A stretch of DNA of 64,000 bases, from contig JACPKC010000010.1 of assembly GCA_016187225.1 (NCBI GenBank), positions 67,541 through 131,540 on the forward strand. The letters are read 5' to 3'. Position 1 is the first letter of the stretch. Every line of letters starts with the position of its first letter. The translations under genes and the position numbers were made by a program. Source of the stretch: Candidatus Berkelbacteria bacterium (GTDB taxonomy: Bacteria > Patescibacteriota > UBA1384 > JACPKC01). Shown here in pieces: positions 26,780-64,000 of this stretch. The notes beneath the pieces were generated by a model. It saw only the letters and a list, made by a program, of their open reading frames with translations. It did no database searches and was not told the DNA's origin.

Positions 26780-26789
26780 TTTCTAATTG

Positions 26790-26978: not shown

Positions 26979-27010
26979 ATTCTTCCTTTCTTTGTCTTTT
27001 TCTACAAAAC

Positions 27011-27085: not shown

Positions 27086-27086
27086 T

Positions 27087-27173: not shown

Positions 27174-27181
27174 TTGTTATC

Positions 27182-34637: not shown

Positions 34638-34642
34638 CAATT

Positions 34643-37153: not shown

Positions 37154-37161
37154 GAGTTCCG

Positions 37162-38268: not shown

Positions 38269-38270
38269 TT

Positions 38271-39870: not shown

Positions 39871-39970
39871 AATATGCTAGAGTAATCAAAAGGTATTTAT
39901 CGATCGAAGTTGAGAACGTCTTGGCTCTATCGGACAAAAATTATCACTCACAATAATAAAAGGAGGCAGA

Positions 39971-40465
39971 ATGAATTTACATAGAAGTAAACAACGAGGT
40001 TTCACGCTCCTCGAGCTCCTCGTTGTGGTTGCGATTATCGCGATTTTAGCCGCGGTGATTGTGGCAAACTTAAACTCGGCGCGAAGTAAGGCAAATGATG
40101 CCAAGGTGAAGCAGGATCTCAATGGCGTCGATCAGGCACTTGCAGTTGCGACCGCTGACCCATCGGTTCTTGGATCGGCGCCTTTAAACGCCTTAAATAA
40201 TGGCGGCGGCGTTTTAGTTGATATCGACACCGAAACGGCGCTAACAGTTAATGGTTATCTTAAGACTTTTCCAATTCCACCATCGGGTATAACGCAATAT
40301 AACTATCGTAGCAACTATTCCAATGGGATTTTCGGCTATGTGTTGTGGGGTACACTCTCAACAAAAACTGGCGCAAACAATGACTGCTGGGTTATAAACA
40401 CCGGTAACGCTTTTCAGTCGAACGGCTGTCTTGCCGCCGATACAACTGGTGTAACACTTCCGTAA
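39971..40465 (+). CDS. pilA: Type IV major pilin (PilA-like)
   Basis: Strong RBS AAAGGAGG; leader MNLHRSKQRG|FTLLELLVVVAIIAILAAV; C-terminal Cys pair; stands alone with its own RBS. Confidence 0.75.
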   Translation: MNLHRSKQRGFTLLELLVVVAIIAILAAVIVANLNSARSKANDAKVKQDLNGVDQALAVATADPSVLGSAPLNALNNGGGVLVDIDTETALTVNGYLKTFPIPPSGITQYNYRSNYSNGIFGYVLWGTLSTKTGANNDCWVINTGNAFQSNGCLAADTTGVTLP

Positions 40466-40478
40466 TTTAAGAATTTTC

Positions 40479-41273
40479 ATGTCGGAGTTTGAGCAAGCGG
40501 TCAATTTTTGGCCGCTTGCGGCGATTTTTGGTCTGTTTTGGGGTTCATTCTTGAATGTTCTTGCTTTGCGCTGGGGTTCAAAGTATCGAGGCTTGACACT
40601 CGCAGAACGGAGTCACTGCCCAAAGTGCCAAAAAATTTTAAATTGGCACGAGCTTCTGCCCCTAATAAGTCTTATACTTTTACACGGCCGTTGCCGAGGC
40701 TGTCGAAAAAAAATTGACTTGCGCTATCCAGGCGTTGAAATTTTAACCGCAGTTTTTCTTGGGGGAATAGTTTTTAAGTATGGGTTGTCAGCTCAAGCCT
40801 TAACTCTGTCAGTTGCCGGGAGTTTGCTTTTGATCGCGGCGCTAGTTGATTTTGAAACTCAAATTTTACCCGATTCTTTAGTTGCAAGCGCTTTCGTTTT
40901 AACTCTCCTTGTAACACTTTTACTGGGTCAATCAGCGCTTGTGAATCTAGCGTTTCCAGTTTCCAGTTGGTGGCGGGGCGCCTTAACCGGCGGGTTGATC
41001 ATCGGCGCGATTTTTCTTCTTACGCGTGGGAAGGGGATTGGTTTTGGCGATGTTAAATTAGCGACCGTGCTCGGATCAGTAGTCGGTATGAGCGGCGCCC
41101 TACTTATGTTGTGGAGCGCGTTTATTTTGGGCAGTCTTGTGGGCGGAACACTTCTACTTCGTCGCCGCGCAACCTTAAAGACCGCTCTTCCATTCGGCCC
41201 CTTTTTATTTGCTGGCTGGCTGATCGCGCTTTTTTGGGGTCGTGACATCATTGCATGGTATACTCAATTATAA
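40479..41273 (+). CDS. pilD: Prepilin peptidase PilD (A24 family)
   Basis: N-terminal CPKC...CRGC zinc-finger; multi-TM with the conserved Asp-containing GFGDVKL box. Confidence 0.85.
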   Translation: MSEFEQAVNFWPLAAIFGLFWGSFLNVLALRWGSKYRGLTLAERSHCPKCQKILNWHELLPLISLILLHGRCRGCRKKIDLRYPGVEILTAVFLGGIVFKYGLSAQALTLSVAGSLLLIAALVDFETQILPDSLVASAFVLTLLVTLLLGQSALVNLAFPVSSWWRGALTGGLIIGAIFLLTRGKGIGFGDVKLATVLGSVVGMSGALLMLWSAFILGSLVGGTLLLRRRATLKTALPFGPFLFAGWLIALFWGRDIIAWYTQL

Positions 41274-44778: not shown

Positions 44779-44809
44779 ATGAGTGGCGGGGCAGGTCGCT
44801 CAATTTTCC

Positions 44810-44834
44810 AGGCCCCACAAGGGCCTTTTCTTTT
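44810..44834 (+). terminator. Intrinsic terminator (AGGCCC-CACAA-GGGCCT followed by TTTTCTTTT)
   Basis: GC hairpin plus U-tract directly after the 43645..44778 gene. Confidence 0.5.
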
Positions 44835-44869
44835 ACAGCTCACCCGAGCTTGTTATACTGCCACCATCT

Positions 44870-45304
44870 ATGCAACCCCTTGAGTATATTGTTAACACCG
44901 ACGGCGGCGCCCGTGGCAACCCAGGCCCCGCTGGCGCGGGCATTGTCATCCAAACCCAAACGGGCGAAATTTTAAGTGAGCTTAAAAAATCACTCGGCAC
45001 GCTCACGAATAATCAAGCCGAATACTGGGGCGTTATTTTTGCCCTTGAAGAGCTCAAGCAGTTTATCGTGAATGATATTGCGCCAGTTCGTTTCCATCTC
45101 GATAGCCTGCTCGTAGTTGAACAACTCAAGGGAAACTATAAAATCAAGAATGAAGGTTTAAAGCCGCTTTTTTGGAAAGTAAAAACTTTAATCGACGAAC
45201 TTGGTGTCGTGGTGAGTTTTAAGCACATTCCGCGCCGGGAAAATACTCGCGCTGACGAACTCGCCAACCAGGCGATGGATGAAGTAGATAGGTCACGAAC
45301 GTGA
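44870..45304 (+). CDS. rnhA: Ribonuclease HI
   Basis: TDGGARGNPGPAGAGIV...NNQAEY...D....H..R..NTRADELAN catalytic DEDD/H pattern; start trimmed to MQPLEYIVNTDGG. Confidence 0.75.
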   Translation: MQPLEYIVNTDGGARGNPGPAGAGIVIQTQTGEILSELKKSLGTLTNNQAEYWGVIFALEELKQFIVNDIAPVRFHLDSLLVVEQLKGNYKIKNEGLKPLFWKVKTLIDELGVVVSFKHIPRRENTRADELANQAMDEVDRSRT

Positions 45305-49843: not shown

Positions 49844-50482
49844 ATGACAGACATTTTTGATCAACCAGAAGAATTAGATTCCGAAACCTTAATCGGTGAA
49901 ACTATTAAACATGCAAGTCGACGGCCGCGACCTTCGCTTCTTGGGCAGAAACAAGCCGGTGAGCGCGGTTGGTATGTGATTCACACCTACACTGGCTACG
50001 AGGATCAGGTAGCCGAAACTCTCCGCCAGCGTATTGAATCACTTGGCATGGACGACAAGATTTTTGATGTGATCGTGCCAGTCGAGAAACAGATTGAGAT
50101 TCGCAATGGCAAACGCCGGACCGTTGAGCGCAAAATTTTTCCGGGTTACGTTTTGGTTGAAATGCTAGTGACAGACGACTCATGGTATGTTGTCAGAAAT
50201 ACTCCGAACGTTACTGGCTTTATTGGCTTGGGTGTCCGTCCAACGCCGATTCCGCTTGCCGAAGTTGATCGAATAAAAAAGAGAATGGGCGTTGAAGAAC
50301 CCAAATATCAGATCGATTTCACAATCAACGATCTTGTAACAATTACCGATGGTCCACTTAAAGGTTTTCAGGCGACTGTGAGTGAGATTGATGAAGAAAA
50401 AGGGAAAGTTAAGGTTCTCGTCAACATGTTTGGGCGTGAAACGCCCGCTCTACTCGATTTCTTACAAGTTAAGAAAGTTTAG
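49844..50482 (+). CDS. nusG: Transcription termination/antitermination factor NusG
   Basis: NGN domain ([14 protein letters not shown]...FPGYVLVEM) and KOW domain ([22 protein letters not shown]). Confidence 0.9.
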
Positions 50483-50501
50483 TAAATCTCAAAGGATGAC
50501 T

Positions 50502-50927
50502 ATGGCAAAAGCAATTAAGACCATGATTAAACTCCAAATTCCCGCTGGCAAGGCTAATCCGGCGCCGCCTGTTGGAACGGCTCTCGGGCCGCACGGCGTA
50601 AATATTATGGATTTTTGCAATCAATTTAATGAGCGCACCAAGCAACTTGGCAACACAATCATTCCGGTTGAACTTACGCTCTATGTGGATAGAAGTTTCG
50701 ATTTCATCCTTAAACAACCACCAGCCGCCGTCCTATTGCGTCAAGCCGCTGGTGTTGAAAAAGGAGCAAGTGAGGTTGGTAAGCAAAAAGTCGGTAAAAT
50801 TTCCCAAGCTAGACTTCGTGAATTAGCCGAGCAAAAAATGTCCGATTTAAATGCAAACGATATCGAATCAGCTATGAAAATTCTGACTGGCACCGCTCGC
50901 TCCATGGGAATTGAGATCCAGAACTAA
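50502..50927 (+). CDS. rplK: 50S ribosomal protein L11
   Basis: [39 protein letters not shown] canonical L11 N-terminus; RBS AAAGGA. Confidence 0.9.
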
Positions 50928-50942
50928 AAGAGGCTGTCAGGA

Positions 50943-52037
50943 GTGGAAAGAATTACGCCAGCCGAAAGAGCCATCTGGGCAGCGTTTGCGAGCGATCTCT
51001 ACTTCGGTCCAACTCATCTGAACGAACTTCTGGCATTGAATGAAACGTTGCAGAGCATTTGGGAAAAACCCGAGCATGAGCTCAAAAAAATTCCTATCCG
51101 ATCGGCCACTCTTCAAGCGATCGTCAAATTACGGACGAACGTTGATCCTATAAAAGTTCTGACTAACCTCCAGAAACAAGGAATTAAATTTATTACTCGA
51201 TTCGATGCCGATTACCCGGCGCTTCTTGGTGAGATTACTGTTCCGCCAGTAGTATTATATATACGCGGAAAATTAGAAAACAAAAATCATACGAACGTAG
51301 CAATCGTAGGCAGTCGACGCATGACAACCTATGGCAAGCGGACGGCTGAATATATCAGTCGGTCGCTCGCACAGAGCGGCATTACGATTGTATCTGGGCT
51401 CGCGCTTGGTATCGATTCGGTTTCTCACAAGGCCGCACTGGAGGCAGAGGGAATTACCTGGGCAGTTTTAGGTTGCGGATTAGATCAGATTTACCCATCC
51501 AGCCATACCCAATTAGGCGAAAGAATTTTGTCGAATGGCGGCGCTTTGATAAGTGAATTTCCGCCTGGTACGCCAGCGCTCCGCCACCATTTTCCGATCC
51601 GCAATCGTATTATTGCTGGCTTGTGTAGCGCAACAATTATTGTTGAGGCGACCGAACGCTCGGGGACGCTCAGCACTGCGCGCGCGGCCTTGGACGCAAA
51701 TCGCGAAGTTTTTGCCGTGCCTGGCTCGATTTTTTCACCCAATTCAGTTGGTTCTCATGCACTCCTCAAATCTGGAGCTGGGCTTTTACATACTCCAAAT
51801 GACATTCTCGAAGCGCTCGGCCTTGAAATGAAGTCATCGGATCGTCCAGTTACACAACTTACGAGCGTAGAAAGTGTAATTTTTGCCACCCTTTCACATG
51901 AACCGATGCTTCTCGACGACCTGATCACTGCCACCCAACTGACGTCGAGTGCGATTGTTAGCACTTTAACGTTAATGGAAATCAAAGGTCTTGTTCAAAC
52001 GGCTGGGCAAGGGCGATACGTTCGATCGCACTCTTGA
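50943..52037 (+). CDS. dprA: DNA processing protein DprA (Smf)
   Basis: Rossmann-like VAIVGSRRMTTYGKRTAEYISRSLAQSGITIVSGLALGIDS; conserved dprA-topA adjacency. Confidence 0.85.
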   Translation: MERITPAERAIWAAFASDLYFGPTHLNELLALNETLQSIWEKPEHELKKIPIRSATLQAIVKLRTNVDPIKVLTNLQKQGIKFITRFDADYPALLGEITVPPVVLYIRGKLENKNHTNVAIVGSRRMTTYGKRTAEYISRSLAQSGITIVSGLALGIDSVSHKAALEAEGITWAVLGCGLDQIYPSSHTQLGERILSNGGALISEFPPGTPALRHHFPIRNRIIAGLCSATIIVEATERSGTLSTARAALDANREVFAVPGSIFSPNSVGSHALLKSGAGLLHTPNDILEALGLEMKSSDRPVTQLTSVESVIFATLSHEPMLLDDLITATQLTSSAIVSTLTLMEIKGLVQTAGQGRYVRSHS

Positions 52038-52075
52038 CGCATGAGTGCATCTTGCGTTTACTAGAACCCATTGTT

Positions 52076-54037
52076 ATGCCAGCCAAACATCTTGTCATTG
52101 TCGAGTCGCCTGCTAAGGGTAAGACGATTGAGCGCTATTTGGGCAAGGATTTTCACGTTCTGGCTTCATACGGACATGTGCGTGATTTGCCAGAGCATAA
52201 CCTTGGTGTTGATGTCGAGCACAAGTTCAAACCAACGTATGTCATTCCGCAAAAAGCTAAGAAAACGATCAGCGCCTTAAAGACTGCCTTAAAGGGCGCT
52301 GACTCCCTTTATTTGGCAACAGACTATGATCGAGAAGGCGAGGCGATTGCCTGGCACATTCTTGAGGCGCTTAACCTCGAAAAGATGAAAATTCCTGTCG
52401 CTCGGATTACCTTCCATGAAATCACAAAATCGGCACTACAGGCGGCGATTAAAAAGCCGCGGTCTCTCGATCTTAACTTAGTTAATGCCCAACAGGCGCG
52501 ACGGATTCTCGATCGTCTAGTCGGTTATACTTTAAGTCCGTTTTTGTGGAAAAAAGTAATGAAAGGTCTTTCGGCGGGGCGCGTGCAATCAGTTGCAGTG
52601 CGTTTGGTCGTTGACCGAGAGCGCGAGATTAAGGCTTTTGTGCCCCAAGAGCACTGGAGTCTTGAAGCGCTTTTGGCAACACGCAAAAAGGAAGAATTTC
52701 GAGCGTCGTTGGCTGAATTTAAGGGGAAGAAGCTTGATAAACTTGGAATTAAAACCGAAAAAGAGGCGCGCGCGCTTGAATCGGCGTTGGCTGGTGTGAC
52801 TTACCAGGTTAAGTTGGTTGAAGAAAAAGAAATCACTAAACGCCCTTCGCCGCCGTTTACAACCTCCACTCTCCAGCAACAGGCCTCGCATCGTTTGCAT
52901 TTTTCAGCCAAGCAGACCATGAAGCTTGCTCAGGATCTATATGAGGCCGGTCACATTACCTATATGCGTACCGACTCAACTAATCTGGCTGGCGAGGCTA
53001 TTTCTGCCACCCGAGGATATATCGAAAAAACATTTGGCGCAAATTATCTTCCGTCTGTGCCTCAATACTACCGAACAAAAAGCAAAGGCGCTCAAGAAGC
53101 GCATGAAGCCATCCGCCCAACCGATGCAACCAAACAGAGTTCGGATTTAAACTTGCCTTCTGATAAACATGCAAAACTTTATGAATTGATTTGGCAGAGA
53201 ATGATTGCTTGTCAGATGGCGCCCGCGCGCCTTAAAGCGACGACCGCCTTAATTCAGGCTGGAGAAGGAATTTTTAAGGCGCATGGCAACGTCGTGGCTT
53301 TCGACGGTTATCTAAGGGTCTGGCCGAGTGATCGAACTGATTCAATTCTACCCAAGTTAGCATCGAATGATTCGCTCACCCTACAAGAATTTTTTACAGA
53401 ACAGCATTTTACCGAACCGCCGGCTCGTTATTCAGAAGCAACTCTCGTTAAGGCGCTTGAGGAACATGGCATTGGTCGACCGAGCACTTACGCGCCAATC
53501 ATCAGCACAATTCAAGATCGAGGCTATGTTCAGCTATTTGAGCGTCGTTTTCAGCCGACTGAAACCGGCGAGATTGTGACTAATCTGCTCGTTGAGCATT
53601 TTCCTGAAATTGTGGACTTAACCTTCACCGCCTCAATGGAAAAAAAGCTCGATCAAGTCGCTGAAGGCGAACAGGATTGGACTAAACTTCTAGGTGATTT
53701 TTACACACCTTTTGACCACAAACTTGAAGTTAAGCAAAAGGAAGTTGAAAAACTTGATCTTACTGAAAAAACCGACAAAACTTGTCCAAAATGCGGCAAG
53801 CCACTCATTATTCGTCGGGGCCGATTCGGTCGATTTTTAGCTTGTACGGGTTTCCCAGAGTGTCGGCATACTGAAGCCATTGTGGAAAAAACAGGGATTC
53901 AATGCCCTGAATGTGGTCAGGGCGAGCTCATCGAAAAGAAGACTCGTCGAGGTAAGACTTTTTGGGGCTGTGAGCGGTACCCAGAATGCAAACATGCCAC
54001 TTGGAATGACCCGCGTAGTCATGAATCATCTTCCTAA
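52076..54037 (+). CDS. topA: DNA topoisomerase I
   Basis: Toprim LVIVESPAKGKTIERYLG; active-site Tyr region; C-terminal C4 zinc ribbons (CPKCGKP...CTGFPEC; CPECGQG...CERYPEC). Confidence 0.9.
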   Translation: MPAKHLVIVESPAKGKTIERYLGKDFHVLASYGHVRDLPEHNLGVDVEHKFKPTYVIPQKAKKTISALKTALKGADSLYLATDYDREGEAIAWHILEALNLEKMKIPVARITFHEITKSALQAAIKKPRSLDLNLVNAQQARRILDRLVGYTLSPFLWKKVMKGLSAGRVQSVAVRLVVDREREIKAFVPQEHWSLEALLATRKKEEFRASLAEFKGKKLDKLGIKTEKEARALESALAGVTYQVKLVEEKEITKRPSPPFTTSTLQQQASHRLHFSAKQTMKLAQDLYEAGHITYMRTDSTNLAGEAISATRGYIEKTFGANYLPSVPQYYRTKSKGAQEAHEAIRPTDATKQSSDLNLPSDKHAKLYELIWQRMIACQMAPARLKATTALIQAGEGIFKAHGNVVAFDGYLRVWPSDRTDSILPKLASNDSLTLQEFFTEQHFTEPPARYSEATLVKALEEHGIGRPSTYAPIISTIQDRGYVQLFERRFQPTETGEIVTNLLVEHFPEIVDLTFTASMEKKLDQVAEGEQDWTKLLGDFYTPFDHKLEVKQKEVEKLDLTEKTDKTCPKCGKPLIIRRGRFGRFLACTGFPECRHTEAIVEKTGIQCPECGQGELIEKKTRRGKTFWGCERYPECKHATWNDPRSHESSS

Positions 54038-54629
54038 AAGCATCCAACGAGTCATTGAAGAATTGAGCAAACTGCCGGGCATCGGGGGGAAAACTGCCGG
54101 TCGGTTGGCATTTTATCTTGTCCGTCAGCCCCCAAGTCAGAGCGAGCGCTTGGGGCAGGCTCTGATCGAGCTACGAACTCAACTTAAATTTTGCTCAAAT
54201 TGTTTTAATATTACCGAGCTCGATCCCTGCTCAATCTGTGCCAATGCTCGGCGTGATCAAACTTTACTGTGCGTTGTAGAACAGCCGCTCGATACAGTCG
54301 CTCTGGAAAAAACAGAGTATCAGGGACTGTATCATGTGCTTGGTGGTGTTATCTCGCCGATTGAAGGTGTTAGTCCAGATCAGTTAAGAATTCGGGAACT
54401 AATCATTCGTCTTGAGAGTTCATCCAGAATCAAGGAGCTCATCATCGCGACCAATCCCTCGCTTGAAGGGGAGGCGACTGCCTTGTATTTGCAAAAACTG
54501 ATAGCCGATCAAGGTCTCAAAAAAATTAAGTTGAGCCGAATTGCTCATGGCTTGCCAGTTGGGGGAGACCTTGAGTATGCTGACGCCGTTACACTCACAC
54601 GCGCAATTGAGGGGCGCCGTAGTTATTAA
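54021..54629 (+). CDS. recR: Recombination protein RecR
   Basis: HhH (LPGIGGKTAGRLAFYL); C4 zinc finger (CSNCFNIT...CSICAN); Toprim; start trimmed to MNHLPKS. Confidence 0.85.
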   Translation: MNHLPKSIQRVIEELSKLPGIGGKTAGRLAFYLVRQPPSQSERLGQALIELRTQLKFCSNCFNITELDPCSICANARRDQTLLCVVEQPLDTVALEKTEYQGLYHVLGGVISPIEGVSPDQLRIRELIIRLESSSRIKELIIATNPSLEGEATALYLQKLIADQGLKKIKLSRIAHGLPVGGDLEYADAVTLTRAIEGRRSY

Positions 54630-54657
54630 ACCCGTTTATAGCGGGAGAAGGAGGGGA

Positions 54658-54825
54658 ATGGCAGCGTATTTTTGCAGTGAATGCAACTATGAAACCGAAG
54701 AGAAACAATGTCCGCTCTGCGGGGGCGCAACCGAGATTCTAGACGTAAAAGACGATCCTTTGCTTGGTCAACTTTCACAGCATCCCCAGTATGCATTCGA
54801 TGATGAGGAGCAAACATATATCTAA
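54658..54825 (+). CDS. Small zinc-ribbon protein (55 aa)
   Basis: Strong RBS GGAGGGG; CSECN...CPLCGG two CxxC pairs; acidic tail. Confidence 0.45.
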   Translation: MAAYFCSECNYETEEKQCPLCGGATEILDVKDDPLLGQLSQHPQYAFDDEEQTYI

Positions 54826-56225
54826 AATTATTTAACACTGCAACGCAGAAACTTGAGTCGTTCAAGCCAATTCGTCCGAATGAGGTAGGTCTTTATGCGT
54901 GCGGCCCAACGGTCTATCAGTTTGCCCATCTGGGTAATTTTCGCACCTACCTTTTTGAAGATTGGCTCCGTCGCGTTCTTGAGTACCACGGATATGCCGT
55001 CAAGCACGTGATGAACATTACCGATGTCGGGCATTTGGTGAGCGATGCCGACTCGGGAGAAGATAAGCTTGCCCTCGCCGCCAAGAAAGAGGGAAAATCC
55101 GCTTGGCAAATTGCCTCGTTCTATACAGACGCTTTCTTTTTTGACACTGATCGGCTGAATATTGAACGGCCGCACAGTACGCCAAAAGCAGCCGATCACA
55201 TCAAGGATCAGATCGCGCTCATTCAACAACTCGACGCAAAAGGCTTTATCTATCAAACGAGTGATGGCGTCTACTTTGATATTCAGAAGTTCCCCGGGTA
55301 TGCAATCTTAGGTGGCCAATCACTGACTGATCTTGAGGCCGGCGCGCGGGTTGAAATTAATCCAGACAAGCGCCATTGGGCAGACTTTGCCCTGTGGAAG
55401 TTTTCTCCTTCTGATACTAAGCGGGATATGGAATGGGAAAGCCCGTGGGGGACTGGGTTCCCCGGTTGGCATCTTGAATGTAGCGCCATGAGTGTCAACG
55501 AGCTTGGTCAACCGTTTGATCTTCATGCCGGTGGCATTGATCACATTTTTCCACATCATACGAATGAGATTGCTCAAAGTCAGGCGGCCACGGGCCTGCC
55601 ACTGGCAAATTTTTGGCTCCATGGCGCGTTTATGCTTGTTGATAGCCAAAAAATGGGTAAATCCCTCGGCAACACTTTTACGCTTCAAGATATAGTTGAG
55701 CGTGGGCACGCGCCGCTGGCTTTTCGCTACCTCGCTTTGCAAACCCACTATCGCAAACAGTTAAACTTCACCTGGCAAGCGCTTGCAAGCGCCGAGCAGG
55801 CGCTTTTCAAGCTCTCGGCGTTGGCGGAATGTTTGCCAGAACAGGGGAATAAAGTGCCGGTGGAAATTGAAGAGAATTTTCGAGCGTTCATTGCCGACGA
55901 CCTAGCTCTCCCTCAAGCAATCGCGCTTTTTTGGGAGGTCTTGAAATCCAATCAACCTGATGAAGTTAAGGCTCAAGTGATTGTTCATTGGGATCAGATT
56001 TTCGGCTTGGGGCTTAAAGAAAAGTTGGGGCAAGGACAAAAGATCCCATTTGAAATTCAACGCCTGCTTAAAGAGCGCGACCAGGCAAGATTAAACAAGA
56101 ATTTCGTTATTGCCGATCGTTTGCGCCAGCAAATTGAGGAGCAAGGTTTTACGGTGCACGATAAAGATGCAGAGTCTTTCGCCACTCGAAATCCGAATGC
56201 CGATAGACAACCTTTCAACCATTGA
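54816..56225 (+). CDS. cysS: Cysteinyl-tRNA synthetase; start codon not canonical or not resolved
   Basis: N-terminus FNTATQKLESFKPIRPNEVGLYACGPTVYQFAHLGNFRTY (HIGH variant); GWHLECSAM; KMGKS. The in-frame region between the upstream TGA and the first ATG at 55008 encodes conserved CysS sequence. Confidence 0.75.
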   Translation: MYLKLFNTATQKLESFKPIRPNEVGLYACGPTVYQFAHLGNFRTYLFEDWLRRVLEYHGYAVKHVMNITDVGHLVSDADSGEDKLALAAKKEGKSAWQIASFYTDAFFFDTDRLNIERPHSTPKAADHIKDQIALIQQLDAKGFIYQTSDGVYFDIQKFPGYAILGGQSLTDLEAGARVEINPDKRHWADFALWKFSPSDTKRDMEWESPWGTGFPGWHLECSAMSVNELGQPFDLHAGGIDHIFPHHTNEIAQSQAATGLPLANFWLHGAFMLVDSQKMGKSLGNTFTLQDIVERGHAPLAFRYLALQTHYRKQLNFTWQALASAEQALFKLSALAECLPEQGNKVPVEIEENFRAFIADDLALPQAIALFWEVLKSNQPDEVKAQVIVHWDQIFGLGLKEKLGQGQKIPFEIQRLLKERDQARLNKNFVIADRLRQQIEEQGFTVHDKDAESFATRNPNADRQPFNH

Positions 56226-56282
56226 CAGAAGAAAAGGTATCTGCTAGATTTTCACGTTCGTTAATGATATAAATAAATAGAA

Positions 56283-56309
56283 ACCAGTGGAGGGCCGCTG
56301 GTTTTTTTG
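56283..56309 (+). terminator. Intrinsic terminator after cysS (ACCAGTGG-AGGGC-CGCTGGT followed by T7)
   Basis: GC-rich hairpin followed by a 7-T run, about 60 nt after the cysS stop. Confidence 0.55.
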
Positions 56310-56461
56310 TTCTTTCTCGCGTTCTGACTAGGAGCCGCGGAGAGTTGTCGGAGAGCGTTGCTCAAAGACAGTGCCCCTCCTTCCCGGCTGCCCCTCGGGT
56401 CTGGTTCCAGCTTGCTGGCGCCGGCCTGGTCAGAACATGGGGAAGAATAAAGAGGAAGCTA

Positions 56462-59434
56462 ATGTCAGAAAATCACGAGCAATCGAGAGCTAATCCAACG
56501 CCTGAAGGTTCGCATCAAGTTGAGAGTCAGGCAATTTCGCATATCCAAAATGCAATTCCTGAATATCAGCAGAATACGCCAAGTTTCGTAGCGTACAACT
56601 CGCACACTACTCAATCTATTGCTTCTGTTCGCGCTCAAATTGCAAACTACACTGAAAAACATCGCTTGAGTCAGGAAGCGCTTGCTATCCCGCGCGCGAG
56701 CATGCTTGGCAAAATTAAACAATCGCTCACGGTTCCCGCCACACCCGAACACCCAACTCGACTCCAGACTTTTTCCTCAAAGTTTCGAGAGTTTTGGCAC
56801 AAATCAAGCACGCGGTGGGCGCGTTTCGGCGCTGGCGCCGTTGCGACCGGTACAGCCTTCGTGGGCGTTGCCACAGCTAATCCGGTTTTAATTGGTCTTG
56901 GTTTAAGTGGCCGAGTCGCGCTTTCTGGAGCGGGCGCTTTCGCCACCTCTCAAACTTCTATGGAGGGCCGCGATTTGCGCCGTGAAACTAACACCAGCGA
57001 AAAACTCTCACCAATTCGTTGGCTAAAGGGTATCTTTAATAAAAACGCGCTTGCTTTAACTCCTCGAGAGCTTCAATCGATGCAAGTTGAGGAAAGGCAG
57101 GAGCGTTTAGGCAAAACTCTTGCAACGGCCCGAGCAATGGGCGCCGGGAATGTTTTTGATGTTACCAGCCAGCCAACGGCTCTTGAGCAACTCGTCACTT
57201 ATTCTCTGCATACCACGCGCCGGGTTGAACAAGTGCGCCAGGCGCTTCAGAATCGTTTAGAGAGAACTAAATCGAAAGATGCCGGAGTTCAAGCGCAGGC
57301 GCTTCAAAAGTTTGATCAATACAAACTCAACGCAACTCTAAATCGAATTCATATTCACCGATCAAAGTTTTTTGATAATCAAGAAGCCAAGATCGAGCGT
57401 GAAAATTTTGTTCAAGCGGTGGAAAATCATGCAGTCAACAATTTGGTTGAGGCTAAGCAGACTGCTAAAAAGCGCACCTGGATTGCCGCCGCATGGGGCG
57501 CGGGTGCGGCTTTGGTAACGGGATTAACGGGTTTAAAACGCATTGAAACGGCTGAACTTTCCTCCAATTACGGCGAAGGTGTTGGGCCGGCGCTCAAACG
57601 TCTAGTCGAAGGAATTAAGAACATTCCGGGCAATCTAAAAGCGATGGCTGAACGCATCTACGACGATTATTTGCGGCCGACGCCAGAAGTGACGGTTCCC
57701 CCTGCCAGTATTTCTTCTACCGTTCCTGAAGTCATTGGCAGTTACGCTTATCAAAAATCACTCTTGCAAGCCATCGAGAAGGCGCGTGAAACTGGCACGA
57801 ATGCGCCAATTTGGCAAGCGCTCACTGATCTTAAGAAGCAGGGAATTGTTTTAAGCGATGTCTTGACAGCAGACAATAAGAACGAACAGGGTCTCTCTTT
57901 CATTGATTACCTCAAGTTAAACGTTGATCGTTTTCAATCGCCAGAGGAACAGCCGGCGTTGCACAAGCTACTTTCCAGTCAGATCGATGCTCATGGCATC
58001 AGTTCAAGCTATGTCAATGAAAGTCATATCAACTACGCCAACGCGCGCGGTATCAGCACAACTCTTCACGGCAAAAAACTTGAAGCGATGTTCGATAGTC
58101 ATGGCCGTGTGGCGGATTTAGAACTTGGCGGCGTCAATCGTCCGGATCTAATTGAATATATCTCAACTAGCGATGGCCGCTTGTGCTTTGATGAAGTTGC
58201 TTTTAGCGCCGATCACCCGATGCCGGAAGTTGCGCGTCGAAATCCTTTTGCTTTGCCGCAACTGGTTCAAGATGAAATGGTACAGGCAACCGGTAAATTG
58301 CCAGCCACCGACGTTATTGAGCAGCCACAACCGATCGATGCTTTTATTGGGGCGCATAAAGGCGTTAAATACTATGAATATAACTTTGGTGATCATGAGC
58401 TAGTGACTTTCACGCAACCGAGTGGAACATTTGAAGTTTGGGAAAAAGTTGATCTAGGCGTGCGCGGAGTCGGCATTCAACCGGCGGCCGAATTTAGGGA
58501 AATTTTTCAGGGCGCGGAACTGCCAAAGCCAGATTATGGCGTTGAGTATCAGGGCGAGTATCAGGTTTCATTTGAGAATGACTTTGGCGGTCCGATCACG
58601 GCCGAGCGAGTTGCTGGTTTCAGTCAAGAAGAGTTAGCGCACTTCAAGAAAGTGGCCGCCGATCGAGAATCGATCACTCGGTTCTTGAGTCGGCACAGTA
58701 TTGAGAGCCAAAATTTCTTTGTGAATGCGGAATTAGTTAATAGCAAGAATGCGGCTGATGGTACCTGGACAACGTTCTATAATCCAAACGCCCAGTTTGG
58801 TAGCCCCGATACCGGTGTAAAGATTCGTTTCGACGAAGTTGGTCAGGTACAAGAAGTCAAAATGGCCCACATTCCAGTGAACGTTGAGGAAACCCGTCGC
58901 CTCGATGCCTATGTGAGCGAAATGGCCCGTCAGGCGGAGCAGAGTGGTACTGGCGTGAACACTGCCGAAACCGCACGGCTCGATGATGCAGTTCGCGCAC
59001 TGGCTCGCGGAGATCAGGCCAAAGCCACAGTTACTCCAGTTGCTTCGTTTGTAACGAACTCAATGGTGAATACATCGGTTCTGGATGCGCGACCTGAAGT
59101 TGTAGCCCCGCCTATTCAACAAGATGTTATCCATGAGCCAGTAGTAAAGGTTCCAGCGCATACTGATTTTCAAACGTCGATAATGTCGCCTGCGATAGAG
59201 CAGGTTCAGACTCAAAATGAACTTCCTCGAATCGATCTCGCGCCTGAAATTGCGCAACCAGAAGCAATCACTTCAAGCGAAGTACCATTTATGCAAGTCA
59301 TTCCTGAATCGGTTAACGAGACATCTCAAGCGCCGCGCTTGCCTGTAATTTCAGAAAATGTTGAACCGGCTGGATCGGTAGGAGAGAGCGGAGTTTTGCC
59401 GGTGATTCAAGTTGATTCCGAACTCGAAAAATAA
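56462..59434 (+). CDS. Large hypothetical protein (about 990 aa) with two Gly/Ala-rich TM hairpin segments and an acidic Pro/Val/Glu-rich C-terminus
   Basis: ATG with RBS AAGAGGAAG; hydrophobic Gly-rich segments (GAGAVATGTAFVGVATANPVLIGLGLSG; WIAAAWGAGAALVTGLTGL); no recognisable catalytic motif. Confidence 0.5.
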   Translation: MSENHEQSRANPTPEGSHQVESQAISHIQNAIPEYQQNTPSFVAYNSHTTQSIASVRAQIANYTEKHRLSQEALAIPRASMLGKIKQSLTVPATPEHPTRLQTFSSKFREFWHKSSTRWARFGAGAVATGTAFVGVATANPVLIGLGLSGRVALSGAGAFATSQTSMEGRDLRRETNTSEKLSPIRWLKGIFNKNALALTPRELQSMQVEERQERLGKTLATARAMGAGNVFDVTSQPTALEQLVTYSLHTTRRVEQVRQALQNRLERTKSKDAGVQAQALQKFDQYKLNATLNRIHIHRSKFFDNQEAKIERENFVQAVENHAVNNLVEAKQTAKKRTWIAAAWGAGAALVTGLTGLKRIETAELSSNYGEGVGPALKRLVEGIKNIPGNLKAMAERIYDDYLRPTPEVTVPPASISSTVPEVIGSYAYQKSLLQAIEKARETGTNAPIWQALTDLKKQGIVLSDVLTADNKNEQGLSFIDYLKLNVDRFQSPEEQPALHKLLSSQIDAHGISSSYVNESHINYANARGISTTLHGKKLEAMFDSHGRVADLELGGVNRPDLIEYISTSDGRLCFDEVAFSADHPMPEVARRNPFALPQLVQDEMVQATGKLPATDVIEQPQPIDAFIGAHKGVKYYEYNFGDHELVTFTQPSGTFEVWEKVDLGVRGVGIQPAAEFREIFQGAELPKPDYGVEYQGEYQVSFENDFGGPITAERVAGFSQEELAHFKKVAADRESITRFLSRHSIESQNFFVNAELVNSKNAADGTWTTFYNPNAQFGSPDTGVKIRFDEVGQVQEVKMAHIPVNVEETRRLDAYVSEMARQAEQSGTGVNTAETARLDDAVRALARGDQAKATVTPVASFVTNSMVNTSVLDARPEVVAPPIQQDVIHEPVVKVPAHTDFQTSIMSPAIEQVQTQNELPRIDLAPEIAQPEAITSSEVPFMQVIPESVNETSQAPRLPVISENVEPAGSVGESGVLPVIQVDSELEK

Positions 59435-59540
59435 TCTTTGAGAGTCTTAGAGCTTTTCACTTTGTGTGTAAAGCTTGATAGGCGTTCAAAGCGGAACGTT
59501 AAAAATTTAGAAAAAATAAGAAGGAAGGGGGTACTCAAAG

Positions 59541-60455
59541 ATGGGTACTCGTAAAAATGGGAACGTTTTTTTTCTTATCGTCGCGCTGGTGGTGAGTGTG
59601 ATGACGATACCAGTGTTCGCACTGGGTTTTCTCGGGCCAATCCTGACTTTCGGGATGTGGTTAGCCGAACAGTTTCGTGACCAGCACCATCGGGCGGAGA
59701 CTCATTCGCCGACGGTTTCATTCGTAATTCAGGTGCCTGACAAGTATCGTCAGCGCGCCGATGAATTTCGGATCGAAACCGACATGGTGATAATCCCGCC
59801 AAGCGAGTCGGGCTACACGTACCGACTCATTAAGGAAGATGGTGGGATGCTTTGGCCAACGACCGTCCGCGTCTGGACTCCGACTTCGGGGTATGAGATT
59901 GAAAAGGTCGAACTGCGGGAGGGGAACCACGTTGTCGATAAGATCGAAGGCAAGCGACTGAAGGCGATGAAGTATTTCGACCTTCAGTTGCCAGATTCGG
60001 TCGGTAACGCGCGGGGTTCGCCCGACCACTTCGAAGTGGTCTTCTACCTTCCGGACGATGAGGAGGAGCGCGTGTCGTGTTCCTTCAGTGTTTTGGCGCT
60101 GACGATCTACGACTGGTATCTGCAGTACGATGAACTGCAAAACCAGCGGATTGGGCGCCGAATGGCTGAAACGCCGCGCCAACTCCACCCTGAGCGGACC
60201 GAGACGGTGACGGTAATCGTTGAGACCGAGACCGGTCTGACGGTTATCGACACCGTAGGGGTGAATCCGCAGGACCGGGCGGCAATCGCTTTCTCGGAGA
60301 AGGTTCAGCCGGGTGTCTATCGCATTCGGGTCAAACCGGGTGCGGTCCGCATCGGTCTGGACCGGCCCGGAGTGGCGACTCCGCCGCCGATTCAAGACGG
60401 TTTCTACGCCGTCGCGCCTGGGTCGCAAACCCAGATCACATTGAAAGGGAGGTAG
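59541..60455 (+). CDS. Hypothetical membrane-anchored protein (304 aa) in a GC-rich island
   Basis: RBS AGGAAGGGGG; N-terminal TM pair; GC about 58-60%, well above the window average. Confidence 0.45.
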   Translation: MGTRKNGNVFFLIVALVVSVMTIPVFALGFLGPILTFGMWLAEQFRDQHHRAETHSPTVSFVIQVPDKYRQRADEFRIETDMVIIPPSESGYTYRLIKEDGGMLWPTTVRVWTPTSGYEIEKVELREGNHVVDKIEGKRLKAMKYFDLQLPDSVGNARGSPDHFEVVFYLPDDEEERVSCSFSVLALTIYDWYLQYDELQNQRIGRRMAETPRQLHPERTETVTVIVETETGLTVIDTVGVNPQDRAAIAFSEKVQPGVYRIRVKPGAVRIGLDRPGVATPPPIQDGFYAVAPGSQTQITLKGR

Positions 60456-60460
60456 AAAAG

Positions 60461-61237
60461 ATGAAAATTTTTTTCATCTTGTTAGCAGTTTTTTTTCTGG
60501 CGGGTCTGCCCACCAGTGCGCGTGGGTATTTGGTACCCGGCAAGAACCCGCAGTCGCCGGCGATCCGGAACGCGGGCAACGAAGTGACGGCGCTCCGGAT
60601 CGCCCAGGAGAAGGGCTGGCGGGTCTACCAGTTGCCCGTCAATACCTACGTGGGTAACTACGGCGCTTCCGGCGAGTTTGTCCGGGGTGTCTTGCCCAGG
60701 GGCGCCTGGATGGGCACAGACGGTACCCACGAGTACGTCGTGGGTTATACCGACGGCCGAGGGGTTTGGCGTGGGTGCGGAAACCTGACCGATCGCATCC
60801 CACCGCCGCCGCCAGTGCGCATTCCACCACCATCGCCGCCGAAGCCGCCGCCCCTCATCCCCTTCATACCGATCACTTCGGGTCTCGTGGTGACTCACGA
60901 GTGGCGGGGTGAGAAGAGTGGCGCGGCGACCGCCAGCGAGTTCTTAACTCGCAACCCGGTTCAAGCGCCGACTATTGTCGGGGATGCCAAGGTGAGCATC
61001 AGCCAGGTGCAAACCCAGGCTCAACCCCTGGCCTTCCCAGACTTTAATATTTCGGCTTTGTCTTCGGCAAACGCCGAAACCGGGCCGATCCAAAACAACA
61101 ACTCCGCCACCTCCCAGGCGAGTAACGTGAACACCGTGCCGATCGGTGTGAACACCGGGCCTGGGAGCGTGACGGTGACTGGGAGTGGCGCGGGTACGCA
61201 AACCGCGCCCACCCAGCAGAACAATTTGATCAGATAG
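60461..61237 (+). CDS. Secreted Pro-rich protein (258 aa) with C-terminal QNNNS-TSQ-SNVN-VNTG module
   Basis: Signal peptide (FFILLAVFFLAGLPTSA); PPPPPVRIPPPSPPKPPPLIP linker; C-terminal module shared with the downstream repeat protein; 6-nt gap to the upstream gene. Confidence 0.5.
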   Translation: MKIFFILLAVFFLAGLPTSARGYLVPGKNPQSPAIRNAGNEVTALRIAQEKGWRVYQLPVNTYVGNYGASGEFVRGVLPRGAWMGTDGTHEYVVGYTDGRGVWRGCGNLTDRIPPPPPVRIPPPSPPKPPPLIPFIPITSGLVVTHEWRGEKSGAATASEFLTRNPVQAPTIVGDAKVSISQVQTQAQPLAFPDFNISALSSANAETGPIQNNNSATSQASNVNTVPIGVNTGPGSVTVTGSGAGTQTAPTQQNNLIR

Positions 61238-61399
61238 CAACAAGGAGGAGTTGCTGTCTGACAGAGTCTTACCCCGAGCTTCGGCTCGGGGGATATTTCC
61301 TCTAGTCAAATCATGTTGACTGGAGGAAAGTATCAATTGAGGGCGTGCGCTGGTCGAAGCGGGCGAGAGTGCAAATATCGGAAAGGTGGTGAATAAACT

Positions 61400-62230
61400 A
61401 TGCAAAAATCTATCGCAATCGTTGCGTTTGCCTTGATGGTGACAGCTGGATCCTCAAGTGTATTCGCGGCGACCGTGCAAAATAACAACAGCTCTACGAG
61501 TCAGAGCCAGAACACTAACGCCGTTACAACGGTTGTTAATACTGGCAGTGGCTCCGCGGCTGGTTCAAGTAGTTCGGCGAGCGCCCAGGATTCGTCAACG
61601 AATCAATCGAACGAGAGGCAATCAACTTCGACTTCGCAAAGTTCGGGCACTGCGACTACAGGTTTGGTGCAAAATAACAATGTTAGCACCAGTCAAAGCC
61701 AGAACGTAAACGCCACCACAACGGTTGTTAACACCGGCAGTGGGAATGTGAGCGGCTCGGCGAGCGCCAGTGGCGGTCAAGCGTCAGAAACAACGCAAAG
61801 CAACTTTGCTTCTGGAAACAGCCAAAATCGGACCGAAAATAACAACAGTTCGATTAGCCAAAGCCAGAACGTGAATTGCGGCACAACCGTTGTCAATACC
61901 TCATCAGGTGATGCCTCTGGTGCGTGTGCGGCGGCAGGTAGCCAAACGGCAACTACGACACAGTCGAACACAACCGAACAGACTCAAACGAAAAAGAATG
62001 AGACCAAGATTGAACAAGCCCAATCAGTGGCACAAGCAACTTCAGTGGCTGGTGTTCCAACCACAACCACTCAAGTCCCGCCGGTTACAACCAAAACCGA
62101 GCTTCCGAAAGAGCTCCTGAAGACGGGTGCAAATACGGTTGCTCTCGCGCTTGGTAGCGCAGTGATCTCAGCCGGTGGCGCAGCATTCGCTCGTCGCAAG
62201 CAGATGGTCGCAGATCTCATCGTTGGCTAA
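61400..62230 (+). CDS. Surface protein with three roughly 58-aa Ser/Thr/Asn-rich tandem repeats and a sortase-type C-terminal sorting signal
   Basis: Signal peptide; three repeats of VQNNN(S/V)STSQSQN(T/V)NA.TTVVNTGSG...; C-terminus LPKELLKTGANTVALALGSAVISAGGAAFARRKQ (LPxTG-like motif, hydrophobic helix, basic tail). Confidence 0.55.
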   Translation: MQKSIAIVAFALMVTAGSSSVFAATVQNNNSSTSQSQNTNAVTTVVNTGSGSAAGSSSSASAQDSSTNQSNERQSTSTSQSSGTATTGLVQNNNVSTSQSQNVNATTTVVNTGSGNVSGSASASGGQASETTQSNFASGNSQNRTENNNSSISQSQNVNCGTTVVNTSSGDASGACAAAGSQTATTTQSNTTEQTQTKKNETKIEQAQSVAQATSVAGVPTTTTQVPPVTTKTELPKELLKTGANTVALALGSAVISAGGAAFARRKQMVADLIVG

Positions 62231-62255
62231 TGCTAACGGTATGTTTTAAGGGGCC

Positions 62256-62281
62256 AAAACGACGCGGAAACGCGTCGTTTT
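62256..62281 (+). terminator. Intrinsic terminator (AAAACGACGCG-GAAA-CGCGTCGTTTT)
   Basis: Perfect 11-bp stem with GAAA tetraloop and trailing T run directly after the repeat-protein gene. Confidence 0.6.
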
Positions 62282-62321
62282 GCGTTGAAGGAGGGGGAGC
62301 CATCTGGTACACTACCGAACC

Positions 62322-63305
62322 ATGGAAGAGCAATTCGATGAGGGTAAACTCAAACTCTACGATCTTCTCAAACTCGGAGAGAAAGAAACGTTGATCCGGA
62401 CCATCGAAGCCGAAATGGCACTGCCGGAGTTTTGGGCTGACCGAATCCGCGCTGAAACTCGTTCAAAAGAGCTGGCGAGTGCCAAATCACTCATCGAGGA
62501 GTGGGAGCGCGCAGAGACTCCAGAGAGTTTACGAACGTTAGAACTCAAAGCAGTGTTGGCCGGCCAGTACGATGCCAGCAACGCAATCGTCTCGCTTCAT
62601 GCCGGTGCTGGTGGCACTGAAGCGCAGGATTGGACGAGTATGCTCAAGCGAATGGTAGAGCGCTGGGCGGAGCACAAGGGATTTTCAGTGACCCTGCTTG
62701 ATGAATCCCGCGGCGAAGAAGCCGGACTCAAATCCGCAACGCTCAAGATTGAGGGGCCATACGCCTATGGATACCTCAAGGCTGAAGCTGGGGTTCACCG
62801 TCTTGTCAGGATCTCTCCGTTTGATTCCGATAAAGCCCGCCATACATCATTCTCGCTCGTAGAAGTTGTACCGGAACTACGCGAGGTAGGGGATATAGAG
62901 ATCGACGAAAAAGATCTACGGATCGATCTCTTCCGAGCCGGTGGCCATGGTGGTCAGAATGTGAATAAAGTAGAAACGGCGGTTCGCCTTACACATATTC
63001 CGACCGGAATTGTTGTAACATCACAGAACGAACGATCACAGGCACAGAATCGAGAGTTGGCAATGAAGGTGCTGATTGCAAAGCTACAGGTACTTGCCGA
63101 ACAGGCACATCTCGACAAGATCTCTGAACTGAAAGGTGAGCATCGGAAGGTAGAGTGGGGGAGTCAAATTCGTTCATACGTCCTCCAGCCGTACCGGCTG
63201 GTGAAGGATGTTCGAACGGGTCATGAAGAGTCTAATGTTGATGCCGTGCTCGATGGTAATCTCGATCCATTTATAGAAGCGTATCTCGAACAACAGGTAA
63301 AATAA
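62322..63305 (+). CDS. prfB: Peptide chain release factor 2, without the programmed +1 frameshift and short at the N-terminus
   Basis: SPF motif (VRISPFDS) and GGQ motif ([20 protein letters not shown]); 327 aa; no CTT TGA shift site upstream. Confidence 0.8.
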
Positions 63306-63338
63306 CCAACAAAAGACGAATAGAAGAAAGGAACATCA

Positions 63339-63641
63339 ATGCCAGGCATGTTTGACCAAGCGAAAGCGCTCCTTAAGGCGCGGAAGGCCCAGCAAGAGTT
63401 AAAAAAAACCGAGATTGAGGCGAGTGGGGGAGAGGGTAAGGTATTGCTCGTTTTTACCGGAGATCTCAAGCTGAAATCGATTACTCTTGACGAGTCATTG
63501 CTTGCGCCAGAGCGTAAAGCCGAGCTCGAGCGCTTACTCAAGGACACTTTTACTCAAGGTATGCAGGAAACCCAGCAAGTGGCGGCCGATAAAACGCGGG
63601 GCGTGATGCGCGATCTCGGCATGAATATCCCGGGGATGTAG
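63339..63641 (+). CDS. ybaB: Nucleoid-associated protein YbaB/EbfC family
   Basis: 100 aa; MPGMFDQAKALLKARKAQQELKK...VAADKTRGVMRDLGMNIPGM typical of the YbaB family. Confidence 0.8.
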   Translation: MPGMFDQAKALLKARKAQQELKKTEIEASGGEGKVLLVFTGDLKLKSITLDESLLAPERKAELERLLKDTFTQGMQETQQVAADKTRGVMRDLGMNIPGM

Positions 63642-63669
63642 TGCTAGATGTGTTCCCAATAATTTTATG
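63641..63669. promoter_or_regulatory. Copy c (reverse orientation) of the 29-nt start-proximal element; its terminal CAT is the complement of the pth ATG
   Basis: Reverse complement reads CATAAAATTATTGGGAACACATCTAGCAC, 24/25 identical to copies a and b. Confidence 0.65.
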
Positions 63670-64000
63670 AAAATAATCGTTGGATTAGGAAATCCGGATA
63701 TATTCTACGAACGCACAAGGCATAACATCGGTTGGCTGGCGCTCGATGTTTTGCGTAAGCAGTTGGTTTTAGAGCCAGATTGGCAAGTATCAGAGTGGGC
63801 CGAAAGCGAAAAATTTGAGGCTTTTATCGCAGAGGCGCATTTTAAAAAAGAAAAAGTCTTACTCATCAAACCGACTACTTTCATGAATAACTCCGGTCGA
63901 AGCGTTGAGCGGATTCGAGCCTTTTATCGTTTGGCGCCTGAACAAATTTTGGCTGTTTATGATGAGCTTGCTGTTTCCCTGGGTAGTATCCGGATTCGTT
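63667..64000 (+). CDS. pth: Peptidyl-tRNA hydrolase, 5' portion (continues beyond the window)
   Basis: MKIIVGLGNPDIFYERTRHNIGW canonical Pth N-terminus with catalytic His. Confidence 0.85.
   Translation, partial: MKIIVGLGNPDIFYERTRHNIGWLALDVLRKQLVLEPDWQVSEWAESEKFEAFIAEAHFKKEKVLLIKPTTFMNNSGRSVERIRAFYRLAPEQILAVYDELAVSLGSIRIR

Follow-up and report, generated by a model that had tools for sequence, protein, structure and literature searches.

In curli, the nucleator CsgB templates the major subunit CsgA, and the two proteins are encoded by adjacent genes and built from imperfect Q/N-rich repeats. Among the chaplins of Streptomyces, the long ChpA–C are sortase-anchored and carry two chaplin domains, and the short ChpD–H are secreted and carry one (PMC5618241). 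Pairs of amyloid signaling motifs, represented by fungal HET-s/NWD2 and bacterial BASS, are cytoplasmic, involve NLR proteins and Bell domains, and come from multicellular bacteria in the case of BASS (bioRxiv 10.1101/2020.01.06.895854). Here we describe a locus of Candidatus Berkelbacteria, a lineage of the Candidate Phyla Radiation (CPR), that can be compared with all three. Its core is a pair of genes, A (HYW32_03410) and B (HYW32_03415), at positions 59541–61237 of a 64-kb window, by which we mean the whole stretch of DNA analyzed, taken from a 320,597-bp contig of a metagenome-assembled genome (MAG). A and B form a genuine two-gene operon in a conserved-slot, hypervariable, fast-evolving surface locus of a small Berkelbacteria clade, and the surface-protein setting that an initial annotation, made from the letters of the window, had given them stands. 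We report the shift in base composition of the operon, the sharp boundaries at which that shift begins and ends, the synteny of the locus, the size of the family to which B belongs and the co-variation of a short module that B shares with its downstream neighbor, gene C.

The product of B consists of a signal peptide, a conserved head, a proline-rich linker (RIPPPPPVRIPPPSPPKPPPLIP), a variable region and a tail module (QNNNSATSQASNVNTVPIGVNTGPGS); the signal peptide, linker and module that had been read in it earlier are all present. C encodes a signal peptide, three modules, a spacer rich in Thr and Gln and, at its end, an LPXTG-like sorting signal; its modules conform to QNNNxSTSQSQNxNxxTTVVNTGSG, that is, to a QNNN...VNTGSG type. 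As the initial annotation had noticed, the B module occurs three times in C in other codons: the B copy is 50–65% identical to the C copies in amino acids and 51–58% identical in nucleotides, with a GC content at third codon positions (GC3) of 0.85 for the B copy and 0.50–0.54 for the C copies. B is nevertheless not a paralogue of C, with which it shares just this one module of ~26 residues. The matching recurs in relatives of the locus. We sampled seven lineages, namely the window, L087, L090, L091, L092, L094 and L001, and, for five of them, aligned the last 70 residues of each B with each of the C proteins. The Smith-Waterman z-scores of same-lineage pairs are 13.9 for the window, 13.6 for L087, 15.0 for L092 and 22.0 for L001, compared with ~0–3 for off-diagonal pairs, except window/L087, which both have the QNNN module type. 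Tail matching is thus seen in four of five lineages and in three module types, the fifth lineage, L094, being too low in complexity to judge. Because three different module types are involved, the B tail tracks its own neighbor C. In L087 and L001, the B and C modules are 81–88% identical in amino acids and 62–73% in nucleotides; amino-acid identity exceeds nucleotide identity, and therefore the match is kept at the protein level and does not reflect recent gene conversion. The sharing of a module between the B tail and C is a property of the locus that is conserved and co-varies. We also considered the modules as the target of a diversity-generating retroelement and rejected the idea, given their nucleotide identity and the absence of any long near-identical repeat in the window, in which the sole RVT_3 match is an RNase H-like open reading frame (ORF) without repeats of the retroelement type and is not a reverse transcriptase.

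In its way of working, the system comes closest to pairs of an anchored and a secreted protein that share a module, such as the chaplins. In both cases there is an anchored multi-copy protein (here, putatively, C) and a secreted single-copy partner (here B), the LPXTG-type signal is found on the multi-copy protein alone, and co-assembly of like modules has been proposed to tether the secreted partner, as we propose here. The differences are also clear; neither B nor C matches PF03777/DUF320 (Pfam, E <= 0.1), the module is rich in Q, N, S and T rather than hydrophobic, and B has a globular head and a proline stalk, which place it closer to an adaptor or display protein than to a fibre subunit. 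The resemblance to curli lies in neighboring genes that share a Q/N-rich repeat, with sequence matching that suggests templated beta stacking; unlike curli, the locus has no PF07012 match and no csgEFG-type genes for outer-membrane secretion in the window, its anchoring would be of the sortase type, and B has one module, not five. As in HET-s/NWD2 and BASS, a C-terminal motif (in B) is matched near the N-terminus of the product of the adjacent gene and co-varies within pairs, but B and C have signal peptides, and Pfam finds no NB-ARC/NACHT, Bell or HeLo domains. Genomic islands and recombining surface-antigen loci offer yet another comparison. With these, the locus has in common an atypical GC3, sharp bounds, surface products and unalignable types in one slot. 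It departs from them in having no integrase, tRNA target or direct repeats, in being filled in all relatives, in the poor conservation of the flanking genes, C and a long upstream gene that we call big, and in the presence of an equal GC3 offset in a second lineage.

What might these proteins do together? C would be an exported protein that its LPXTG-like signal probably ties to peptidoglycan, and B would be exported without an anchor and could dock on C by homotypic beta-strand co-assembly of the Q/N-rich module. The proline-rich stalk would then hold the 95-residue head of B off the wall as the functional, perhaps host-contacting, end, and A would serve as a membrane-anchored partner that is probably translationally coupled to B. 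The C proteins of L087, L092 and L094 end in a canonical LPKTG or LPATG, a hydrophobic segment and RRK. PF00746 is detected on C orthologues only, at 14.9–17.6 bits (below the cut-off of 20), and the NCBIfam NPXTG anchor model gives a weak 14.1 against a cut-off of 23.5. Among CPR genomes, over half encode a sortase (PMC6744442). The window contains a dcw-type cluster for peptidoglycan synthesis (Mur ligases, MraY, FtsW, MurG, MurB) as well as a class A penicillin-binding protein with C-terminal Big_7 domains, and therefore the organism builds a wall in which sortase substrates could find an attachment point. Weighing against this proposal are the lack of a sortase gene in the 64-kb window and the ending of the window C protein, which is LPKELLKTG-ANTVALALGSAVISAGGAAFA-RRK (ANTVALALGSAVISAGGAAFA being the hydrophobic segment) instead of a clean LPXTG. 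The LPKELLKTG sequence is apparently a 4-residue duplication inside the motif, and the C ends may represent a clade-specific variant of the sorting signal. An unusual feature of these ends is a conserved extension of 9–10 residues after RRK that finishes in LI(V/L/I)G. The most far-reaching interpretation, which we consider unlikely, is a new secreted "module-matching" display system of the CPR, in which anchored C would capture B by amyloid-like, sequence-specific stacking of the Q/N-rich modules, the head would be a new fold, the leader RNA described below, with its mimic of an anti-Shine-Dalgarno sequence, would control the whole and the GC3 excess, rather than being imported, would be kept by an operon-specific force, such as hotspot gene conversion under diversifying selection for host contact.

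The compositional anomaly of the operon is pronounced. The two genes together have 58.8% GC, as compared with a mean of 47.5% (standard deviation (sd) 1.8, maximum 52.4) over 590 other segments of the same 1697-nt length, for a z-score of 6.2, and the richest 1-kb bin of the window (60001–61000) reaches 61.5%; the GC-rich two-gene stretch of the initial annotation is borne out. So is the shift in codon usage that it led one to expect: GC3 is 0.672 in A (z +5.0) and 0.737 in B (z +6.5), and the 47 other ORFs of the window, our reference set, average 0.461 (sd 0.043, maximum 0.614). GC at four-fold sites is 0.69 (A) and 0.76 (B). Nearly all codon families are shifted, for example AAC from 0.34 to 0.78, CTG from 0.11 to 0.39 and AAG from 0.35 to 0.76, and among the Gly codons GGC goes down and GGG and GGT go up. 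The composition shift of A–B is real, synonymous and sharply bounded. Across the lineages (Table 1), the operon GC3 is uncoupled from genome GC3; its offset is about +0.25 in the window and L094, +0.13 in L087, 0 in L092 and as low as -0.10 in L091, or, in sd units, +5 to +6.5 (window and L094), +2.3 to +2.8 (L087), ~0 (L092) and, in L091, -3.5 for the gene upstream of B and -1.2 for B. We refer to the gene directly upstream of B in any lineage as X, such that A is the X gene of the window.

Table 1. Third-codon-position GC of the genomic background, gene X and gene B in the seven sampled lineages
Lineage	Background GC3	X	B
Window	0.46	0.67 (A)	0.74
L094	0.64	0.89	0.87
L087	0.56	0.68	0.70
L092	0.79	0.81	0.82
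L091	0.64	0.54 (-3.5 sd)	0.61
L090	0.52 (CysS only)	0.61	0.56
L001	~0.42 (94 codons of CysS)	0.61	0.61

The locus lies in a stable neighborhood. The gene order is NusG, L11, DprA, TopA, RecR, a small zinc-ribbon ORF, CysS, [big], X, B, C, PrfB, YbaB, Pth, L1, with the leader RNA between cysS and [big]/X. All detected B relatives occupy the cysS–prfB slot, the X–B pair lies downstream of cysS in each of the six related lineages, and prfB follows wherever the contig extends far enough (L087, L092, L094). The locus is found identically in two to three separate samples or assemblies for L087, L092 and L001; the duplicate contigs (L087/88/89, L092/93 and L001/2/3) are 100% identical within each set and so carry no polymorphism signal. 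No direct repeats were found flanking A–B, no integrase or transposase is recognizable among the ~50 annotated ORFs of the window, and no tRNA gene is near the pair, the nearest being at 22.8–27.3 kb of the window. A slot that is occupied in every lineage, together with the lack of mobility hallmarks, means that A–B, for all its atypical composition, is not an inserted island, and the "island" of the initial annotation, in the sense of an insertion, is to be given up. In GTDB species genomes, the B head profile finds no relative and a scan with CysS returns a best match that is only 54% identical, leaving no closer genome for a presence/absence comparison. The small ORF between recR and cysS is 50–57 residues long and is conserved at this place in all lineages; its L087 copy is rich in Cys and resembles a zinc ribbon.

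Why, then, is the operon so rich in synonymous GC? Some explanations can be set aside quickly. B is proline-rich, with a GC at second codon positions of 0.53, and a GC excess could in principle be a by-product of Pro/Gly/Ala/Arg-rich or low-complexity protein without any codon shift, which is the outcome that would have undone the initial annotation. The amino-acid compositions combined with background codon usage, however, predict a GC3 of only 0.457 for A and 0.466 for B, far from the values observed, and therefore the shift is synonymous; A, moreover, is not of low complexity and yet is shifted. We give this explanation virtually no credence, and the same is true of the notion that real minus-strand genes constrain the sequence and thereby raise third-position GC in the sense strand. 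The three minus-strand ORFs listed by the initial annotation are indeed there, in the codon-aligned frame (Table 2), but they arise because TTA, CTA and TCA codons are rare in A–B (0.7–0.8 per 100 codons, against 4.0 in the background). Sense identity between the window and L094 is highest at codon position 2 (0.63), then position 1 (0.55) and position 3 (0.39); the sense frame is the one that encodes signal peptides and a domain modeled with confidence, and in which indels keep the frame; and the antisense "GC1" of L094 would be an implausible 0.89. Mis-assembly, in which a higher-GC fragment would have been joined to the contig, is suggested by the MAG source and the sharp composition boundaries, but is very improbable: an 88-kb contig from an independent Logan assembly of run SRR12113424 matches window positions 50461–64000 at 100% identity, across both junctions, the gene order is equal in six other lineages and the segment holds exactly the genes expected at the slot. 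Expression-linked codon bias is likewise unlikely, as ribosomal-protein genes of the same genome have a normal GC3 (0.42–0.48).

The explanation toward which we lean, tentatively and at somewhat less than an even chance, is lateral replacement: A–B would have been exchanged through recombination with DNA of a higher-GC member of the clade, an allelic or xenologous event at a fixed slot of a hypervariable surface locus that requires no insertion, and the pair would still carry the synonymous codon usage of the donor. The codon usage of A+B correlates with that of ordinary genes at r = 0.84 in L094 and 0.83 in L092, but at only 0.44 in its own genome. Background GC3 in the clade spans 0.46–0.79, so suitable donors exist, and offsets in both directions are predicted by exchange between genomes of differing GC, not by a one-way force. 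Mosaic affinities point the same way, with A aligning with the L094 X alone and the B head being nearest to L001 and L090, and the weaker fit between B and C in the window than in L087 and L001 is expected of a recent arrival. A number of observations speak against replacement. The L094 operon has an equal GC3 offset of +0.24, bounded by steps just as sharp, and third positions are saturated between the window and L094 (identity 0.39–0.41; CysS 0.38); one ancient transfer therefore cannot explain both, and two independent replacements, each precisely the size of the operon, would be needed. The flanking big gene is near the background of its own genome in both the window and L094, and C is near background here and at -3.2 sd in L094; big and C are barely alignable between lineages, leaving no obvious conserved flanks for homologous replacement; and no donor nearer than 57% (B) or 41% (A) is present in ~15 billion proteins. 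Incongruence between the B and CysS trees was rejected as proof of transfer, as the unrooted topologies are compatible and only relative distances differ. Several of these points fit better with vertical inheritance under a persistent, operon-confined force that raises synonymous GC, such as GC-biased gene conversion focused on a recombination hotspot or else selection acting on the A–B mRNA, which we regard as a real possibility without expecting it to be correct. In bacteria, genes that undergo recombination are enriched in GC (PMC4450053). Common to the window and L094 are the big–A–B architecture, an offset of +0.24 to +0.25 and steps exactly at the operon ends, and with synonymous sites saturated the shared offset is no relic of a single old transfer. 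X–B is at or above background GC3 in six of the seven lineages, B and X favor Arg over Lys in all of them, and C keeps its own set-point (0.51 in the window and ~0.5–0.68 whatever the genome, which is ~-3 sd in the GC-richer L094 and L092), showing that gene-specific regimes exist at the locus. Such a force would, however, have to be specific to the type-A operon defined below, given that in L091 X lies 3.5 sd under the genome value and that L092 has no offset; gene conversion tracts should yield gradients instead of steps at gene ends; highly expressed genes of this genome have no GC3 rise; and the Gly codons (GGC down, GGG and GGT up) do not reflect a simple AT-to-GC push. Replacement and a local force are not exclusive, and both rest on frequent recombination at the locus. 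Of the two possibilities raised by the initial annotation, a horizontal donor and a local regime, both stay viable, with the codon match to higher-GC relatives counting for one and the equal L094 offset for the other.

On the evidence of sequence searches, A, B, C and big fall in no described family; Pfam, NCBIfam, PHROG, PADLOC and PDB sequence searches return no family match for any of them, and phage and defence-system readings were rejected. The statement of the initial annotation that A and B have no recognizable homologues holds for these databases but not beyond, since B belongs to a small metagenomic family and A has one homologue. An N-terminal-domain profile of B identifies 7 true members in 1.84 billion representative proteins, each 228–275 residues long and carrying a signal peptide ahead of the domain, which spans residues ~23–119. 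A metagenome scan added only a duplicate locus (L005) and one false lead, the C-terminal helix of a LuxR-type response regulator on a high-GC metagenome contig (L006); this helix is nearly identical to the stretch "ALRIAQEKGW" in the head of B, which we judge a chance or convergent resemblance. The window B head is 57–58% identical to those of L001 and L090 and 43% to that of L094. It has an alpha/beta fold that ends in an invariant GCGN-T motif with a single Cys. Full-length B was modeled poorly (pLDDT 44) and was replaced by an AlphaFold2 model of the head domain (eight sequences; pLDDT 89.5, pTM 0.82), which predicts two helices and six strands and for which Foldseek finds no match in PDB (best E 1.0) or BFVD (best E 0.24).

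The X gene is far more variable than B. It comes in three mutually unalignable types, A (window and L094), 2 (L087, L091 and L092) and 3 (L001 and L090). In profile–profile comparison, types 2 and 3 have no more in common than a faint beta-sandwich-like stretch at the C-terminus (probability 41%), and type A resembles neither of them; the PDB sequence matches, to titin Ig for type 2 and to PHIKZ042 for type A, are marginal. The linker of B co-varies with X type, being proline-rich in types A and 3 and of a "VFGPTVYPTAPMP" form in type 2. A itself has a 34-residue N-terminal hydrophobic stretch, which could be a membrane anchor or a hairpin, and a beta-rich body; in the L094 X, this stretch splits into a cleavable-looking signal peptide and a second hydrophobic segment. 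The L094 X, 41% identical, is the one homologue of A and was found through context look-ups of the loci of relatives, a word-indexed protein search with A having returned A only. The same kind of search with C, which is of low complexity, gave no scoring match. For A, a start at 59541 (304 aa), preceded by the ribosome-binding site (RBS) AAGGAAGGGGG and agreeing with the L094 alignment and the Logan gene call, is better than the NCBI start (284 aa). The gap between A and B is 5 nt and not, as the initial annotation had it, 6. The big gene is common to the window and L094 alone, that is, to the type-A lineages. It encodes N-terminal membrane segments, has a normal GC3 of 0.45 and has as its sole homologue a 939-aa L094 gene, to which it is 33% identical over 84 aa. 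Its mechanically assigned TTG start at 56345 falls inside the leader RNA; the true start is probably the ATG at 56462 (990 aa), which has an RBS and agrees with the Logan call.

The region upstream of these genes is conserved as well. Directly after cysS, a TTGACA-17-TAGA(C/T)T arrangement recurs across lineages, with the second hexamer degenerate in L094, L001 and L090; it is a putative promoter. Beyond it is a structured leader RNA of ~130 nt, which folds into a three-way junction behind an 18-bp closing stem and leaves unpaired the stretch CCCCUCCUUCCC (CCUCCUU), which resembles an anti-Shine-Dalgarno sequence. Compensatory changes affect 21 of its 42 pairs, and none of 500 shuffles reaches the covariation score; 89% of cells are paired, against 33–47% in slid controls; the covariance model R1 scores 128 bits (E 1e-29); and the minimum-free-energy z-score is -3.3. 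There is no Rfam match at the gathering threshold in the window or the six related loci, and none at E <= 1 for the L087 copy. The model finds only this locus and is absent from 80 other cysS loci (mostly CPR) and from the rest of the window. The RNA sits just upstream of the big RBS in the window and L094, and 100–250 nt before X elsewhere. It is probably a cis-regulatory leader of the locus, of a candidate new kind that is confined to this clade and locus. In L092, an annotated 180-aa antisense "gene" overlaps the leader region and is probably spurious. At the other end, a terminator-like hairpin, 35 nt past the B stop codon, probably marks the end of the operon. Away from the locus, the window also contains a type IV pilus cluster and five minus-strand tRNA genes, four of them tightly clustered, that are unrelated to the A–B operon.

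Table 2. Positions of features of the locus, of its counterparts in relatives and of other parts of the window
Feature	Sequence	Position	Strand	Basis or remark
Promoter-like site (TTGACA, 17 nt, TAGATT), directly after cysS stop	Window	56222..56250	+	Sequence, cross-lineage alignment
Structured leader RNA	Window	56315..56444	+	Covariance model, covariation
Promoter-like site + leader RNA	Window	56222-56444		
big gene, 990 aa	Window	56462..59434	+	ORF, Logan gene call
Gene A, 304 aa	Window	59541..60455	+	ORF, RBS, L094 alignment, Logan gene call
Gene B, 258 aa	Window	60461..61237	+	ORF, family profile
B head domain, aa 23-115	Window	60527..60805	+	Family profile, AlphaFold2 model
B proline-rich linker RIPPPPPVRIPPPSPPKPPPLIPFIP	Window	60794..60871	+	Sequence
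B tail module QNNNSATSQASNVNTVPIGVNTGPGS	Window	61091..61168	+	Match to C repeats, Smith-Waterman score 130, z 13.9 vs shuffles
Terminator-like hairpin CCCCGAGC-TTCG-GCTCGGGG	Window	61272..61291	+	Consensus match only
Gene C, 276 aa	Window	61400..62230	+	ORF, modules, sorting signal
C modules	Window	61478-61555, 61670-61747, 61835-61912		
C sorting signal	Window	62102-62227		LPXTG-like
Antisense ORFs (236, 138, 153 aa)	Window	59718-60428, 60482-60898, 60944-61405	-	ORF list
Leader RNA	L091	6920-7050		
Leader RNA	L087	8704-8834		
Leader RNA	L094	5830-5958		
Leader RNA	L092	1827-1971		
Leader RNA	L001	529-624		
Leader RNA	L090	1627-1722		
Annotated antisense "gene"	L092	1583-2125	-	
Gene C	L094	11151-12098		
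Gene C	L092	4814-5536		
C end with extension	Window	62102-62230		
C end with extension	L087	11835-11951		
C end with extension	L092	5414-5536		
C end with extension	L094	11982-12098		
recR–cysS ORF	L087	6806-6958		
recR–cysS ORF	L091	5238-5399		
recR–cysS ORF	L092	130-303		
recR–cysS ORF	L094	4125-4292		
recR–cysS ORF	L095	4198-4365		
LuxR-type helix (false lead)	L006	980-1084		
dcw-type cluster	Window	20-8713		
Class A penicillin-binding protein	Window	14709-17525	-	
tRNA genes (five)	Window	22849-22923, 26709-27256	-	
Type IV pilus cluster	Window	33147-41273		PilN, PilO, PilB-like ATPase (MshEN), PilT-like ATPase, PilC, pilin (N-methylation motif), PilD prepilin peptidase
RNase H-like ORF	Window	44783-45304		RVT_3 match

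The A–B operon offers a clean setting in nature in which lateral replacement can be told apart from GC-biased gene conversion: it is a strong compositional outlier in two genomes whose synonymous sites are mutually saturated. A lifestyle of attachment to other cells is presumed for Berkelbacteria and other CPR bacteria, yet almost none of their surface machinery is annotated. The locus described here provides a concrete unit of such machinery, comprising a repeat protein that is probably anchored, a secreted partner that copies the repeat in its tail, a hypervariable membrane partner and a dedicated leader RNA. If the pairing of modules is templated in an amyloid-like manner, the principle at work in curli and chaplins would reach into the CPR, and the modules could be read as address labels for surface display.

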